A stretch of 64,000 bases of DNA, from positions 2,048,001-2,112,000 of the forward strand of contig OZ219747.1 in the NCBI GenBank assembly GCA_964291265.2. The letters run 5' to 3'. A model generated the notes under the pieces. The model was not told where the DNA came from, made no database searches, and was given only the letters and a program-made list of their open reading frames with translations. The translations under genes were made by a program, and so were the position numbers. This DNA is from Alphaproteobacteria bacterium. GTDB taxonomy: Bacteria > Pseudomonadota > Alphaproteobacteria > SP197. This document shows positions 46,105 through 54,933 of this stretch, piece by piece; the stretch's first letter is position 1, and each line of letters opens with the position of its first letter.

Positions 46105-46682
46105 GCCGCCGCAACCGCAACGCACGCAGCCTCTTCGCCCAGCGAACAGAAACCGTAAGCTCTCCAGCCTCGAGATCGTCCCGCCCGACGAACCACGACG
46201 AGGCCGGAGAACGCCAGAACAAGACCCCGCGCAAAAGCCTGAAGCTCCCCTCCCACATCACGTTCCACAAACGCCGACCGAAACGACATCGTCACAACGT
46301 CAACGTCAACGCAAGACCAATGGGATCCAACAATAGGCAGAAAACAAAGACCGGGCGGACCTTCGTCCAATGCCGCACGTTCTCCTGTCGTGGTCACCCA
46401 CTCACACGATCAGCGCCCAAAAGAGCGGTTCTCCGCCAATATCCCGCCGTTCTAAATCGCCGCCGACACGTCAAGGGCAACGCTCCGGAGACCTTCGCTA
46501 TCCTCGACAGCATCAATTGGCAAAAAGACGCCACCGGCCACTTCACGGAGCCGTTCGACAAGGCGCACGGTCGACTGGAGCAGCGTTCGATCAGCGTCCT
46601 CGTCCCGTTGGACGGTCTGATCAACTATCCGGGCGTCCGTCAGGTCGCCCGCATCACCCGCTATCGGGAGCCGTGGAAGAAA

Positions 46683-46850
46683 GGCTCCGGCGATGCCGGG
46701 AAGGAAGGCTCCGGCGATGCCGGGAAGGAAGGCCCCGGCGATGCCGGGAAGGAAGGCTCCGGCGATGCCGGGAAGGAAGGCTCCGGCGATGCCGGGAAGA
46801 AAGGCCCCGGCGATGCCGGGAAGAAAGGCTCCGGCGATGCCGGGAAGCAA
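46683..46850 (+). repeat. In-frame 24-bp VNTR x7 (G[S/P]GDAGK[E/K/Q])
   Basis: GGCTCCGGCGATGCCGGGAAGGAA units, contiguous, inside the ISAs1 transposase 3' segment. Confidence 0.95.
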
Positions 46851-47318
46851 GAAGAGAAGGATTACACGGAAACCGATTACATCATCACCTCTCTCGATAC
46901 GGGGGCCACGTCGCCGGAAGAGTTGCTGCGACTGAACCGCCGCCACTGGGCCGTGGAAAATCTGAACCATCGACAAAGGGATTGCGTCTTCGGCGAAGAC
47001 GCCTGCCTGACCCGCACCGACAACGGCCCGGCGAACCGGGCCAGCCTCAACAACATCGCGCTCGCGGTGATCTTCGCCAACCGCCGCGAGGCCGAAAGCC
47101 TCGCCGAAACCCGGCGCCGCCTACAACTGGACCGTCGCGAGGCCATCAACGCCCTGACCCGGCCCTGAGACGCCTTGAGCGTCCGGGGACCCCGGAACGC
47201 TGCTAGACCGAAGTTCCGGACGTTTTCCAGCTGGAAGTCGCGTCAAGTCGTTGATCTTGCGCGGTTTATCGGGTTTGACGGACTTCACAACGTACCCATG
47301 TACGGATGCATTTTGTGC

Positions 47319-47347: not shown

Positions 47348-48791
47348 CAGTAGCCATGTACATCGAAGCCGTCCCCAACCGCTCCTCGCCGCCCGCCATC
47401 CTGCTCCGCGAGTCCTATCGCGAAAACGGAAAGGTCAAGAAGCGCACCATCGCCAACCTCTCCAAGTAGTCCCCCACCCTCGTCGAGGGATTGCGCATCC
47501 TCCTCAAGGGAGGAACAGCAGTCCGACATCTCGACGATGCCTTCGACATCGTCCGCTCCCTTCCCCACGGGCATGTCGCCGCAGTGCTGGGAACCCTGAA
47601 GAAGCTGGGACTGGACAGGCTGATCGACCCGAAGCCCTCGGCACGGCGCGATCAGGTCCTGGCCATGATCGTGGCACGCATCCTCGAGCCCGCCTCGAAG
47701 CTGGCCACGGCCAGGGGGCTGGCCGAGGCCACGGCGGTCAGCACCCTGGGCGAGGTCCTCGATGCGGAGATGGACGAGGACGCCCTCTATGGCGCCATGG
47801 ACTGGCTCCTGGAGCGTCAGGAGAGGATCGAGCGGTCCCTGGCGAAGCGGCGCCTCGAAGAGGGCTGCCTGGTGCTCTATGACCTGACCTCGGTATGGAT
47901 GGAGGGGAGAGCGTGTCCCCTGGCAAGGAGGGGTCATTCCCGGGATGGCAAGAAGGGCAAGCTGCAGATCGAGTTCGGCCTTCTGTGCGATCGGGACGGC
48001 TGTCCAGTGTCGGTGGAAGTGTTCCCCGGCAACACGGCGGACCCCGGGACGGTGGCATCACAGATCACCACGCTGCAGGAGCGCTTCTCCCTGGCGAAGG
48101 TGGTGCTGGTGGGAGACCGGGGGATGCTGACCGAGGCGCGCATACGCGAGGAGGTGAAGCCTGCGGGCCTGGACTGGATCAGCGCCTTGAGGGGACCGGC
48201 CATCCGCGCCCTTGTGGAGGCCGGCGACGTCGAGATGTCGCTCTTCGACGAGAGGGACCTGGTGGAGATCACCAGCGATGCGTATCCCGGCGAACGCCTC
48301 ATGGTCTGCCGCAACCCCCTGCTGGCCGAGGACCGGGCCCGCAAGCGCCAGGAGCTGCTCGAGGCCACCGAGGCCCTGCTTGAACCGATCGCCGCAGCGA
48401 CACGGCGCGACAAGCGCCGTCTCAAGGGTGCCGACAAGATCGGGGAGCGGGTCGGCAAGGTCATCGGTAAATACAAGATGGCGAGTAACTACTCACCCCC
48501 TACTGATGACGGATCGTTTTTCCTGACGGGTTCGGATCCGGCATTGTCTCTTGCCGCCTTCACTTGCTCGCTTCCGATGATCGGATGTGCGTGTTCCGAC
48601 TGACAAGAAGCGGATCGATCTTCGTCTTCAGCTCCACGTTCCGGCCTTATATGGCCAGGTTTTGTCCCCGTGATGATGCAATCATCCACAGCGGTTGGCT
48701 GCCTTTCCAATCCTCTGGAGATATGCGCTTGACATTGTAGGAGGGGCACTCTACATGCAGGCCATCGGGGCGGTTTGCGTCGGAGATATTG

Positions 48792-49466
48792 ATGGCGGCA
48801 TGGTATGGATCGAAGGCGACGACGGGTCTGAGCCAGGCGATCGTCGCGGCCATGCCGCCGCATGACGTGTACATCGAGGCGTTCCTTGGGGGCGGCGCGA
48901 TCATGAAGCGCAAGCCACCGGCGCTACGCAGCATCGGCATTGACCTCAACCGCCGGGCGATCGACACCTTCCGCTGTGACTATCCGGTGGAGCTTCACCA
49001 AGGCTGCGCCCTGCGTTTTCTCGAGACCTTCGCCTTCCAGGGCCGCGAGCTGGTCTACTGCGACCCGCCTTACGTGCAGTCGACGCGCCGGTCGCAGCGC
49101 CGCTACCGCTTCGACTGCACGGACGATGACCATGTTGCGCTCCTCGACATCCTGACGTCGCTGCCCTGCCAGGTGATGATCTCCGGCTATCCCTCGCGGC
49201 TCTACGACACGCACCTCGCCGGCTGGCGCTCGGCCGAGGTCCAGGTCAACAACCAGGCCTGCGTTGTCACCGAGAAGCTGTGGTTCAACTTCGCACCGGG
49301 CCGACCGCACTGGCATACGTGTGCGGGCAGGAACTCGATCGACCGCCAGCGCATCAAGCGCCTCGCAGAGAGCTGGGCGCGGCGCTACCGGACGATGCCC
49401 GAAGGCGAGCGGCTCGCCGTGCTGGCGGCAGTCATGGCGGTGGAGGCGTCGTCATGGCGAGCGTGA
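48792..49466 (+). CDS. Compact Dam-like DNA adenine methyltransferase
   Basis: YGSK, motif I IEAFLGGGA, motif IV YCDPPY, VMISGY, EKLWFN; GGAG SD; its 3' end overlaps the transposase start. Confidence 0.85.
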   Translation: MAAWYGSKATTGLSQAIVAAMPPHDVYIEAFLGGGAIMKRKPPALRSIGIDLNRRAIDTFRCDYPVELHQGCALRFLETFAFQGRELVYCDPPYVQSTRRSQRRYRFDCTDDDHVALLDILTSLPCQVMISGYPSRLYDTHLAGWRSAEVQVNNQACVVTEKLWFNFAPGRPHWHTCAGRNSIDRQRIKRLAESWARRYRTMPEGERLAVLAAVMAVEASSWRA

Positions 49467-50147
49467 ACGGCACGTCTGTGCGCCAGGAGGCCGACATCTT
49501 CCAGAAGCAGTTCCAGGATCTCCGCAAGCAGGGCAAGGTCAACCAGGAGTGCGAGGAGCTCTTCCGCGGCATGCTGATGCTGATAAAGCTGTTGCTGACC
49601 GTGCTCATGGAGAAGATCACACGTAAGACAAGCCGGAACTCCGGTCTGCCGCCATCGCAGACTGACAAGGACGAGAGCGCGAGGCGCACCGGGAGCCACG
49701 GCAAGGGCCCGAAGCCGAACCAGCAGACGGGCGACAACCTGCGCACGACCACCGTCGAGGAGACGATCGTCGTTGATGCCTGCGACGCCTGCGGCGCCGA
49801 CCTCCACGACGTTGACCCCGTCGACCGGGAGTGCCGCGTCCTCTACGACATCGTGTTCGAAGTCGTCGAGCGCCGCGTCGAAGCCGAGATCAAGGAATGT
49901 CCGAAGTGCCGGGCCCGGACCAAGGGCCGGTTCCCAGACAACATGCCGGGCCCCCTGCAGTACGGCGTCAGCATCCAGGCCCTCGTCATCAACCTGCTGA
50001 TCGCCCAGATGCTGTCCCTGCGTCGTGCCGTCTCGCTGTAAGCGTTCGGCCGTTCGGTGATGGCTGATTTTGGTTGGTTTGGGTCTTGCTGACTATCGTC
50101 TGAGAAAGTGCTGGTAAACTCGTTTGGTCTCGATTATGGTCGAGGCC

Positions 50148-52580
50148 ATGAAGACTTTTGCCGAGACGCGCGGAGCGACACAGCAGCTGACGGGAGGTGG
50201 TGACGGCCTATGTCGGGCGTCAGTGGCCTTGTCATGCGAGGCGCCTGACTGGCGTGCGCTCTATGAGGCGGAGCGGGTTCGTGCGGATGCGGCGGAAGCG
50301 CGTATGCGGTGTGCCAGGCGAACTGGCGGAAGGTAGGGGGTGAAAGTCCCCTGGAACGAAGGAGTAACCAAACCACGTTTCTCCGCGAGCCGTGCGTCGG
50401 TTCCCGCGAGGGGGCAGGCGAAGCGTCGGTAGCGGTACGGATGGGCAGGGCTAATGAGCACCGAAAAAGCTATCATCCGGGGTGCCGAGGCTTTCGCATT
50501 GGTCGAAGGCAACATCGCAGGCATCGATTTGGTGAGATGTCGGCGAGCCCCGCGGTGTCAGAGAACCCATGCACGTCCGCACGCCTTCTGTTGGGACCCT
50601 GGGAGATCTTCAAACCGTCCCGCCGGTTGTGGCGGGACCGCATGGGGAAGGAGAAAACCGAAGCCTATGATGTACGGTTTGAAGAAGTCGGATGAGGCCG
50701 TAGTACCTGTGAAGGCGGCGAACAAGGAAGCGTTAGCTTCTGCGGAGTCGCTGGAGGAAAGGGCCTCAACCAAGGGGAATCCGGGACGCTAAAGCACGCA
50801 CCGAACGCAGTGTCGGGCAAGCGTGCCACAGGCGGCGGATCGGATACGGGAAGCCGCAGGCTAGTCCAGTGGTTTGCCGTCCAGTACCCGAGGTAGGAGC
50901 CGGATGGATTAACGTCCACGTCCGGATCTGCGCGGGGGGTGCGCAGCAATGCGCATCCCTACCGCGTCTGACCTGCGCCGTGCGAAGAATTCTGCCCGTG
51001 CCCGTGCGGGCACATTCAAGTTTCATCTCGACCGCACTCGTGATCAGCTCAAGGAGGCTCGCCGGGAGGTGAAGCGTGGACAGGCCCGAGCGGAGGCGCT
51101 GGAGCAGGAAAGGGACGCTCTGAAGCTCAAGAACGCTGAACAGGCGAGCGAGCTGAGGAATCTCCGCGGGACGCGTGCCAAGCACGCGACGGCGCGCTTC
51201 GGGTCGAAGAGCGAGAAACGGAAGAAGAAGGAAGGCACCGGGAACAAGCGGGGTCAGCAACCCGGCAAGAGCGGCCACGGGCGCACTCCGCGTCCGAAGC
51301 TCAAGGAGAAGCACGAACGCCATGATCCACCGGCATCGCAGCGCACGTGCCCGTGTTGCGGCGAGCCCTATGTGGCCAACGGCAGCCACGAGACCTCGAT
51401 CATGGAGGTCCATGTCAAGGCTCATATCCGGCGGATTGAACGTGGGCGTTGGCGCCGTGGTTGTCAGTGTTCGTCGGCGCCTGCGGAGATCATCGCGCCG
51501 CCACCTTTGCGCTTGCTTGCGAATACCCCCTTCGGCATCAGTGTCTGGGAATGCGTGCTCTATGAGCGCTTCGCCTGCTTGCGTCCCCTGCGCCGGGTCT
51601 CGCGATGGCTGGAAGACCAGGGACTGCCGATGGCGCCGGGAACGATCGCTGGCGGCATGAAGAAGATGACGCCGATGTTCGCGCCTCTCGCTCAGGCCAT
51701 CCTCGATCATCAGAACCGGCTGACGGTGCGCCACGGCGACGAGACCAGCTGGCGCATCCAGTCCCTCAAGGCCTCGGGGCGCTCGCAGAAGGCCTGGCTG
51801 TGGACCGCGGTCAGCGCCGACTCCGTCTTCTTCCTTATCGACCCGTCACGCAGCACCCGGGTGGCCATGGTGCTGTTCGCCTCCACCGAAGGTGTCGTCT
51901 TCCTTGTTTGCGACCGCTACGTGGTCTACAGGAAACTGGAGCGTGAGCTTGATGGCAAGGTGATCCTCTGCCTTTGCTGGGCGCACTCCAGGCGCGATGT
52001 GATCGAGGCTGCGGCAGGCCAAGAGGGGCTGGAAGAGTGGTGCGACAAGTGGCTCGACAGGATCGCGCTGATCTACACACTGAATGGGCAACGGCTGAAG
52101 CACTACGATCCCGCACGCAAGCGTCAGTCAGCGAGGTTCAATGCCCTGCAGAAGGACCTTCGTGCGGCTGTCGAGGCGCTGTTCAGGCAGGCTCAGGAGG
52201 AACTCGACGCCTTGCCCGAGGGTGCACGCGAAGCGAAGCCCTTGCGTTCCCTGATCCGTCACCGCGAGGGACTGTGCGTCTTTGTCGACCATCCCCAGGT
52301 GCCCATGGACAACAACTTTGCCGAGAGAGCCCTCCGGGGTGCGGTGACCGCGAGAAAGCTGAGCTTCGGCTCCGACAGCGAGGAAGGCGCCGCCTTCACC
52401 GCCATCATGTACTCGGTCATCGGCACCCTTGCCATGAACAACATCAATGTTCGGCGCTGGCTTCATGAGTGGCTTGAGGCCTGCGCGCAGAACGGCGGCA
52501 AGCCGCCGGATGACCTCGACCCGTGGCTGCCATGGTCGATGCCCCCGGAGCGTCGAAGGGACCTCATGGAACCGGGGTGA
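50148..52580 (+). CDS. IS66 transposase B, two exons (50148-50308 and 50969-52580)
   Basis: Spliced junction reads AEARMR/DLRRAK in frame; FGSKSEK, CPCCG, HGDETSW, VCDRY, LCWAHSRR, DNNFAERALR. Confidence 0.8.
50309..50968 (+). ncRNA. ORF-less group II intron (IIB-like), 660 nt
   Basis: 5' GTGTG; domain V GAGCCGGATG...CACGTCCGGATC (50897-50928); domain VI stem with GCAA loop and bulged A at 50961; EBS1-like CGCAT (50495-50499) complementary to the exon end ATGCG. Confidence 0.88.
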
Positions 52581-52870
52581 TCGAGTGCCGTTACGACGGC
52601 CGTGACTTCACCGCGCACGAGATGGCGCTGTTGCGCTCCCTGATCACCCAGCACCCCACCCGTGCGGCCATCGCCCGCGCCTTCTGCCGCGAGACCGGCT
52701 GATACAAGCCCGACGGGGCCTCAAGAACATGATGGCGAATGTCGCCTTTCTGGCCATGCACCGCGACGGCCTCATCACCCTGCCGCCACCCCAACGACGA
52801 GCAACCCGACCCGGACCCATCGTCTTCGGACCCAACAGCGAACCGCCACGTGGTGCGCCTCCCAAACGCA
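52577..52870 (+). pseudogene. Truncated N-terminus of an IS66-associated DUF4338-type protein
   Basis: GTGA overlap; RYDGRDFTAHEMALLRSLI...R..IARAFC...G*YKPDG, then a frameshift, then LAMHRDGLITLPPP. Confidence 0.6.
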
Positions 52871-54933
52871 TCCTCAACCGGTGAATATCACCAACAATCA
52901 CCGCGTGGCCGAACGCTTACGTCTCGCTCGTGCACGCGATCTCCGGCATCAAGCTCTCCGAGGCGACCTGCCTCGGCTATGTCCGGCGCTTTCACGATGC
53001 CCTCGCATCATGGGAGGAGGCCGCCGTGGCCCATCTCCTGCAACAACCGGCCCTGCATGTCGACGAGACCGGCTTCCGGGTCGCCGGCAAGACCCAATGG
53101 CTCCATGTCGTCACCGACGGCACCCTGACGTGCAAGTTCCCGCACCCCAAGCGCGGCCGGGAGGCGATCGAAGAGATCGGCATCATCCCGCGCTACAAGG
53201 GCGTCCTGATCCACGACTGCTGGGCTGCCTACATGGGCTACGATCAATGCCGCCACCAACTGTGCGGCAGCCATCTCCTGCGCGAACTGACCTTCGTCGT
53301 CGAGTCCAACGGCTACCGCTGGGCGCGACTGATGAAAAGCCTGCTGCGCGAGGTCTCCCGCAGGGTCAACAAGAGCGCATCCAAGACCTTGAACGAGGCC
53401 GACCGCCGGGCCGTGCGCAAGCGCTACCGCACCATCCTCACCCAGGGCGCCAAGGAACTGCCCGACATCCCGCCACGGACGAAAGGAAAACGTGGACGCA
53501 TCGCAAAGTCCGACGCGCACAACCTGCATGAACGTCTCGTGAAACACGAGAAGTCCGTCCTGCGCTTCATGAAGGACCCCAACGTCAGTTTCACCAACAA
53601 TACCGGAGAGCAGAAGATCAGGATGACAAAGGTCAAGATCAAGGTGTCCGGATGTTTCCGCACCATGCCCCACGCCAAAGCATGGTGCCGAGGCTCAAGC
53701 TACCTCACCACCATGGACGCACTCGGCTACAACCCTCACGTCGCCATCCACATCGCCCTCGACGGAAAGGCCGTAGACATCCTCAACCAACACTACGGAC
53801 AACCAGACCCTAACAAGGGGTGAGTAGTTACGATGGCGAAGCACTTCACGTGGTCCATCGACGACGAGGGTGTCTTCACCTATGGGCGCGATGAGGTTGC
53901 CATCGCCGCCGAGGCCAGGCTCGACGGCCTCTACGTGATCCGCACCAGCCTGCCGCAGAGCGAGCTCGACGGTCCCGGCACGGTGCGCGCCTACAAGCGG
54001 CTGAGTTCGGTGGAACGGGCCTTCCGCAGCCTGAAGACCGTGGATCTGAAGGTCCGCCCCGTCTACCACCGCACCGAACCCCGGGTCCGCGCCCATGTCT
54101 TCCTGTGCATGCTCGCCTACTACGTTGAATGGCACATGCGCCAGAGACTGAAGCCCATGCTGTTCGACGACGAGGATGCCGAAGGCGCCGAGGCCCGGCG
54201 GCCGTCCGTCGTGGCGCCGGCAGAAGTCTCGGCGAGCGCCCGGGCCAAGGCGGCAACGAAGAGGACGCCCGGGGGTGATCCGGTGCACAGTTTCCGCACC
54301 CTCCTCGATGATCTCGCGACCATCACCCGCAACACCGTGGCGCCCCGCCTTGCGGGCGCCAAACCCTTCCAGGTCACCACGCGGCCCACGCCGCTCCAGA
54401 GAAGGGCGCTCAAGCTTCTGGGCGTGGAGCCGTAGTGTACTCAGTCAGATGCTTCTGAGATCCATCGAATGTCATTCATATCAGGTACTTGCACTTGATC
54501 GGCGCTGGAACTTCGGGCTAGAACATCAAGAACCAAGCATCCGGGCCGAAAACGCTGCCGGTGTCGCCATGCGGACGGCACTGAAGCCACGGAATCCGTC
54601 CAGGACATCCCGATTCGGCCTCGATTCGTCGGCCTCGCGAAAGATCAGATGGCCGATTCGGGCGCGATTCATCGGCTTCCCGAAAAATCAGCCGTAGCGT
54701 AGGAAAGTCCTGTGCGCCGGATCAGCCTTCCAGCGCTCAGTGGAATGAACCCTTCATGGGGACTTACCCCGGTCCCCTACCGCGACAAGCCCCTGCGAAA
54801 CATGACAGAGACGAGGGAGGTCACATCTGCCCGGCATCCGCTCCCTTCCTTCTCCGGGAGCTGTCGCGGCATTGCGCAAGGGGTCCGGACCGGATATCTG
54901 ATCGCGCAGCCACCCGTATCGGAGCAGCCCACC

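Follow-up and report, generated by a model that had tools for sequence, protein, structure and literature searches.

Replication direction probably divides one insertion sequence family between an ORF-less group II intron of an IS66 transposase gene and its reverse transcriptase-bearing sister

The window, a stretch of 64,000 nucleotides from an alphaproteobacterial contig (OZ219747.1, positions 2,048,001 to 2,112,000), contains an insertion sequence (IS) whose transposase gene is split by a 660-nt ORF-less group II intron, GUGUG...UC, named intron S (Table 1). A DDE_Tnp_IS66 transposase, GTAA-type inverted repeats and an 8-bp duplication assign the host to the IS66 family. The N-terminal transposase segment with its PDW motif was matched in 89 of 119 homologues, and an intron-free allele of the transposase scored over the NF033517 cut-off. 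The IS is nested in a second IS66-family element (49457-53823). This outer element interrupts a gene for a DDE transposase (47491-48603 and 53833-54435) and is preceded by an ORF for a D12-class adenine methylase (48789-49466). A transposase-like ORF (46320-47168) contains a short tandem repeat (46640-46880) encoding a repeated octapeptide. No sigma-70-like promoter was found between 49900 and 53000. A terminator-like hairpin at 50046-50077, just inside the left end of the IS, might block read-through into the transposase and the intron; three such hairpins were found against 2.2 expected, a weak signal.

Table 1. Features of the intron-bearing IS66-family element, in window coordinates (L, sister intron; EBS, exon binding site; RT, reverse transcriptase).
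Feature	Position	Strand	Evidence or remark
Host IS66-family element	50038..52920	+	2,883 bp with intron, 2,223 bp without; terminal inverted repeats starting GTAAGCG; 8-bp target duplication
Transposase 5' exon	50137..50308	+	about 57 codons, start inferred from homologues; conserved PDW motif
Intron S	50309..50968	+	Rfam matches; boundaries from intron-free alleles
Domain I, approximate limits	50314..50602	+	RF02005 match at 50343-50567; closing stem from fold
EBS2	50467..50471	+	3/5 pairs with exon positions -12..-8; differs from EBS2 of L
EBS1 (CGCAU at 50495-50499)	50495..50500	+	5/6 pairs with exon end
EBS3 (A)	50560..50560	+	pairs with T, first base of 3' exon
J2/3 GGA	50691..50693	+	gamma G would pair with last intron base C
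Domain IV with RT remnants	50769..50895	+	1,259 nt shorter than in L
N-terminal RT stub	from 50823 to stop just past deletion junction (about 50860)	+	aligned to one end of the RT of L
C-terminal RT stub	ending 50895	+	aligned to the other end of the RT of L
Domain V	50897..50928	+	AGC triad, AC bulge, UAAC loop
Domain VI	50930..50966	+	branch A 50961 (position -8); contains ATG 50949
Transposase 3' exon	50969..52580	+	PF03050 DDE_Tnp_IS66
Empty L target site in the IS of the window	51752..51753	-	opposite strand of same IS

A first-pass annotation, made from the letters of the window, had read this segment as an ORF-less group II intron, and Rfam covariance models agree. RF02005 (group-II-D1D4-6) matched with 170.2 bits, above its gathering score of 49. 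RF00029 (domains V and VI) matched 50895-50967 with 33.6 bits (E 1e-4) and so fell short of the gathering score, 40; the RT-bearing sister intron L likewise falls short of it (34.7 bits). The predicted fold of S is stable (z = -5.05), and none of 20 shuffled sequences was equally stable. S has the six-domain fold, the 5' GUGYG, the domain V catalytic triad and the bulged A in domain VI of group II introns. The annotation had also described the GTGTG start, the AGC triad, the bulged A at position -8 and a CGCAT loop pairing with the exon end, and all four were borne out. Group II introns terminate in AY; S ends in UC, as the annotation had remarked, and does so in 15 of 15 copies. Exon recognition is of the IIB type with 5 of 6 pairs for EBS1, 3 of 5 for EBS2 and the single pair of EBS3, at positions fixed by covariation in relatives. 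The gamma pairing was a G with a terminal C in seven and an A with a terminal T in one of eight distinct relatives parsed. The last base of S, a C, is still compatible with a gamma G.

Both ends of S match intron-free alleles exactly. The genome has 12 IS copies empty of S, and an intact intron-free allele at C2:927480 shows the junction that the annotation had predicted. A contig from another sample (run X3) skips exactly 660 nt, GT..TC, at the site of an S copy in an ABC-transporter gene, and differs there from the assembly by about 15 bases per kb; the assembly itself contains no empty allele of this site. This empty allele is an independent confirmation of both ends and of an insertion outside the IS. 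Judged by these sequence comparisons, S is a real, recently mobile, ORF-less group II intron. Run X3 also contains a 3'-to-5' intron joint at high depth.

The survey of the genome assembly (4.83 Mb) yielded 15 copies of S. Fourteen are in one IS66 family; the other lies in the ABC ATPase gene, in sense orientation and at a matching IBS1/2/3 site. Thirteen copies are identical over 660 nt, one has a 5-nt deletion and one is interrupted, after base 7, by an element of the IS110 family. Besides these siblings, the annotation had suggested a cognate RT acting in trans, and the genome encodes one: the sister intron L, 1,919 nt long and 94% alike S, has 11 copies with an intact RT. S and L differ at 41 positions, which cluster at EBS2 and include EBS3. 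L also occurs at two non-IS66 sites (C2:1918148 and C2:1469806); for one of them the genome has three alleles that are empty. A third allele, at C2:1375030, was excluded from the L count.

Several neighbouring observations concern the same intron family. The IS110-family element occupies the same point, after base 7, in one S copy (C2:2668818) and in two L copies (C2:2596607 and 3034826); it may be a site-specific element directed at the 5' end of the intron. The end of the ABC gene is duplicated at 96% identity (C2:2242062-2249134), and the duplicate carries an interrupted ORF-less copy (C2:2242635-2248969). The 3' end of this copy is S-like and its 5' end L-like with other EBS sequences; first tallied as S, it was excluded from the final copy and orientation counts. 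RT-bearing relatives in other genomes (loci L035-L046 and L051) are inserted between domains V and VI of related introns, some in head-to-tail arrays. The metagenome contigs had no exact match to the S-specific deletion junction. Among 60 related genomes, a full ORF-less match was absent, and 13 had partial or RT-bearing matches. A selenocysteine tRNA was called in the same genome (C1:146424-146519).

Domain IV of S retains two RT stubs, which the annotation had recognised, and these align to the two ends of the RT of L. With the stubs remaining and 1,259 nt less than L, S is a non-autonomous intron with a deleted RT, as had been proposed. The RT of L has 443 amino acids, a YADD motif, and RVT_1 and domain X (GIIM) only; it is endonuclease-less and scored over the cut-off of TIGR04416. 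The annotation had likened the stubs to the two ends of class E enzymes. In agreement, the RT of L groups with that of a disrupted intron on the Sinorhizobium meliloti plasmid pRmeGR4b (51% identity; same clade, support 94/96, on a long branch). Three other RTs of that S. meliloti strain share 34-37% identity and stand apart in the tree, and among these introns only the pRmeGR4b intron shares RF02005 with L. A disrupted class E intron has been placed on pRmeGR4b (PMC5894124). The RT of L is thus likely class E, by comparison with a single reference intron whose name, S.me.I4, was inferred from the plasmid and the broken frame and not from an annotation. Class E introns have no endonuclease domain, and their ribozymes span 450-700 nt (PMC3753933), in line with the domain content of the L enzyme and the 660 nt of S. 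The domain V loop of class E has 5 nt; that of S can be read as 4 nt, closed by a U-G pair, or as 6 nt with this pair open.

The exon binding sites differ between the alleles in step with their targets. S forms 5+3+1 pairs by EBS1, EBS2 and EBS3 at its own site, L 6+5+1 at its own and the third allele 5.5+5+1 at another. EBS3 is an A in S (target T), a G in L (target C) and a C in the third allele (target G). EBS and IBS thus covary across three genomic alleles, and among 30 distinct sites, 27 have a Watson-Crick pair at EBS3, each of the four pair types being represented. The exon match of S is weaker than in most relatives. S inserts in sense, about 57 codons into the transposase, and L is antisense in the same IS, at a site equivalent to 51752/51753 of the window.

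The UC end is unusual. The 3' ends of 55 out of 80 related loci could be parsed: 49 are AC, three AU, two AG, one CC and none UC. A Rhodothermales assembly has two related introns with an apparent AG end in place of AY. RmInt1 naturally ends in CC, and a penultimate U (1883U) strongly impaired its second splicing step (PMC4238363). Both the rarity of UC and this defect would fit an intron that was recently mobile and is now splicing-dead, inactivating each IS copy that it entered. Such a loss of splicing is very improbable: the change to UC predates the spread, as it is shared by every one of the 15 copies, the ABC-gene copy among them, and retrohoming requires excised RNA. As S spread with UC, the splicing defect cannot be total. 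The UC end would rather act as a throttle on exon ligation.

S and L divide the IS copies between them. Among 26 copies that hold both sites (three of 29 candidates were excluded as diverged or without one site), 13 carry S only, 10 L only, one both and two neither (Fisher p 1.7e-4). The GC skew places the origin of replication near 0.72 Mb and the terminus near 3.29 Mb; dnaA is located at 0.65 Mb. Of the 15 copies each of S and L, 13 and 14 respectively point along the fork, in total 27/30 (p 8e-6), with two S copies and one L copy facing against it. Collapsing possibly related copies leaves 24/27 (p 5e-5), and counting one L copy within 2 kb of the inferred terminus against the fork gives 26/30. 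The host IS is without orientation bias (14/26 along the fork). Control repeat families had 9/19, 8/21, 16/36 and, for the fourth, 3/4 copies along the fork, and long ORFs were evenly distributed (580 to 567). Co-orientation with the fork means that an intron went into the lagging-strand template. The targets of S and L are on opposite strands, so the orientation of the IS decides the occupant: S is present in 12 and L in one of the 14 fork-aligned IS copies, and S in two and L in 10 of the 12 head-on copies. A preference for the lagging-strand template across the genome is known for the endonuclease-less RmInt1 (PMC1802570), and a moderate strand bias has been described for class E and ORF-less introns (PMC8919778).

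This fork-linked pattern favours retrohoming over carriage by the IS. Dispersal of the intron by the IS, suggested in the first-pass annotation, did not hold up as the main route, with a fork bias in S, none in the IS and an S copy in a non-IS gene. In its strict form, S would have inserted once or twice and then travelled as cargo of the transposing IS66, while gene conversion shuffled the IS alleles. Among the 14 S-bearing IS copies, ten are flanked by an 8-bp target duplication of their own, and two S copies face against the fork, both as expected of cargo. The IS tree was mostly unresolved, with one of 16 inner branches supported, and eight of the nine IS copies in the supported clade carry S. 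A private-mutation test was weak (one event in S, about 4.5 expected, p 0.06). A segregating-site test (P 3e-7) was discarded, its value being inflated by mosaic IS alleles. The clade and the non-significant private-mutation test allow for some IS carriage of S. As a full explanation it is unlikely, given that an unbiased IS has S-bearing copies biased along the fork (12/14) and L-bearing copies biased oppositely, that S also sits in a non-IS gene, and that the exons around S in the IS are of two different alleles.

The mutual exclusion could also stem from selection or interference instead of the fork, for example by pairing of antisense intron RNA or by recombination between the inverted 94% repeats that deletes doubles. 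In the sole double copy, S has the 5-nt deletion, which lies in domain I, and the transposase is frameshifted; two near-identical introns in inverted order at a distance of 0.8 kb might be unstable. Interference accounts neither for the prediction of the occupant by IS orientation (Fisher p 0.001 and 1.7e-4) nor for the orientation of copies outside this IS66, and we regard it as improbable.

We therefore hold it to be probable that S is an RT-deleted group II intron which is spliced and retrohomed by the enzyme of its sister L and is divided with L by fork direction. The RT-deleted S would splice and retrohome with the RT of L in the same genome. Cross-recognition of S by this RT is an assumption, L being a sister with 41 differences and not necessarily the direct parent. 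The endonuclease-less RT would prime at the replication fork, and each intron would prefer the lagging-strand template. A fork-aligned IS would then present the target strand of S and a head-on IS that of L, and the exclusion of one intron by the other would arise without direct competition.

The consequences for the transposase depend on the occupant. In the unspliced RNA of the window, an in-frame stop at 50336 truncates the transposase, and in silico excision restores 600 codons from stop to stop, both as the annotation had read. A full 600-codon frame results from excision in 8 of the 14 S-bearing IS copies. An ATG in domain VI (50949), overlooked in the first pass, shares the frame of the 3' exon, and from it a 543-aa ORF can be read in the unspliced RNA. 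Its use as a way around the gate is disfavoured: the 13 bases ahead of the ATG loop are predicted to be paired, which would bury it in a hairpin, the product is without the conserved N-terminus, and L carries the same ATG. With the ATG predicted to be buried and the N-terminal segment missing, full-length transposase from each S-bearing copy likely needs splicing, and a gating of the transposase by S is plausible copy by copy. Across the genome the gate is incomplete, because two of the 26 IS copies are intact and intron-free and can supply transposase. Both lie with the fork and are thus open targets for S. An antisense intron cannot be spliced from the transposase mRNA, and an insertion of L would therefore knock out its IS copy for good. 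S would leave a splice-dependent copy, probably an inefficient one owing to the UC end. Transposase gating by an intron was previously described for RmInt1 (PMC4238363).

More tentatively, the three elements may form a circuit. L would destroy head-on IS66 copies and S would make the fork-aligned copies dependent on splicing, and most of the remaining transposase capacity (8 of 10 intact frames) would hang on the maturase of L, throttled by UC. From the IS would come transcription as well as new targets. By retargeting to the opposite strand, the ORF-less sister would have escaped target saturation. We rate this extension as possible and well short of likely.

The genome thus provides a clean natural record of the spread of an endonuclease-less group II intron: one chromosome, one target family present in both orientations, and a pair of introns directed at opposite strands. 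The genomic evidence suggests that a retargeted sister without an ORF can be mobilised at the replication fork by a class E-like RT, and that a UC end is compatible with intron mobility. With gate and key as separate elements, the throttling of insertion sequences by introns becomes testable.

ISRm2011-2, the host of RmInt1, belongs to the IS630 group. Like S, RmInt1 of Sinorhizobium meliloti lies in sense in the transposase of its IS, introduces premature stops and must be spliced (PMC4238363). It resembles S and L in its genome-wide lagging-template preference (PMC1802570), and S in its pyrimidine at the penultimate position, although this end is CC in RmInt1 and UC in S (PMC4238363). Unlike S, RmInt1 is of class D and encodes its own RT (PMC4238363, PMC1802570). 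The disrupted intron of pRmeGR4b, taken as the class E intron S.me.I4, is a single broken copy, unlike the multicopy L (PMC5894124).

In bacteria, introns without an ORF are rare, and a related RT accompanies nearly all of them (PMC4424553). The ORF-less TeI3 introns of Thermosynechococcus elongatus are close in design to S: they share one ORF deletion with N- and C-terminal remnants, have diverged in EBS to new targets and have spread by retrohoming with the protein of a related intron (PMC2882425). S likewise has a shared ORF deletion with remnants, EBS/IBS matches at several sites and a related RT in the genome. One intron family of T. elongatus also sits in an IS (PMC2882425). TeI3 introns are of the CL/IIB1 type with an endonuclease domain, whereas the helper of S is endonuclease-less and class E-like, and S and L, unlike TeI3, target opposite strands of one IS (PMC2882425).

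The separate ingredients found in TeI3, RmInt1 and Sr.md.I1 are each published and none of them is new. A search of a limited literature collection found no published case of a pair of sister introns that share out a single IS by strand. Sr.md.I1 is located, like S, in an IS66 transposase ORF, and RmInt2 targets both inverted repeats of ISRm17, with the result that the lagging template always offers one of the two (PMC4615759). Related intron-encoded proteins are partly interchangeable (PMC4615759). Sr.md.I1 and RmInt2 are RT-encoding class D introns, and a single intron covers both strands there, in contrast to the two retargeted sisters described here (PMC4615759).
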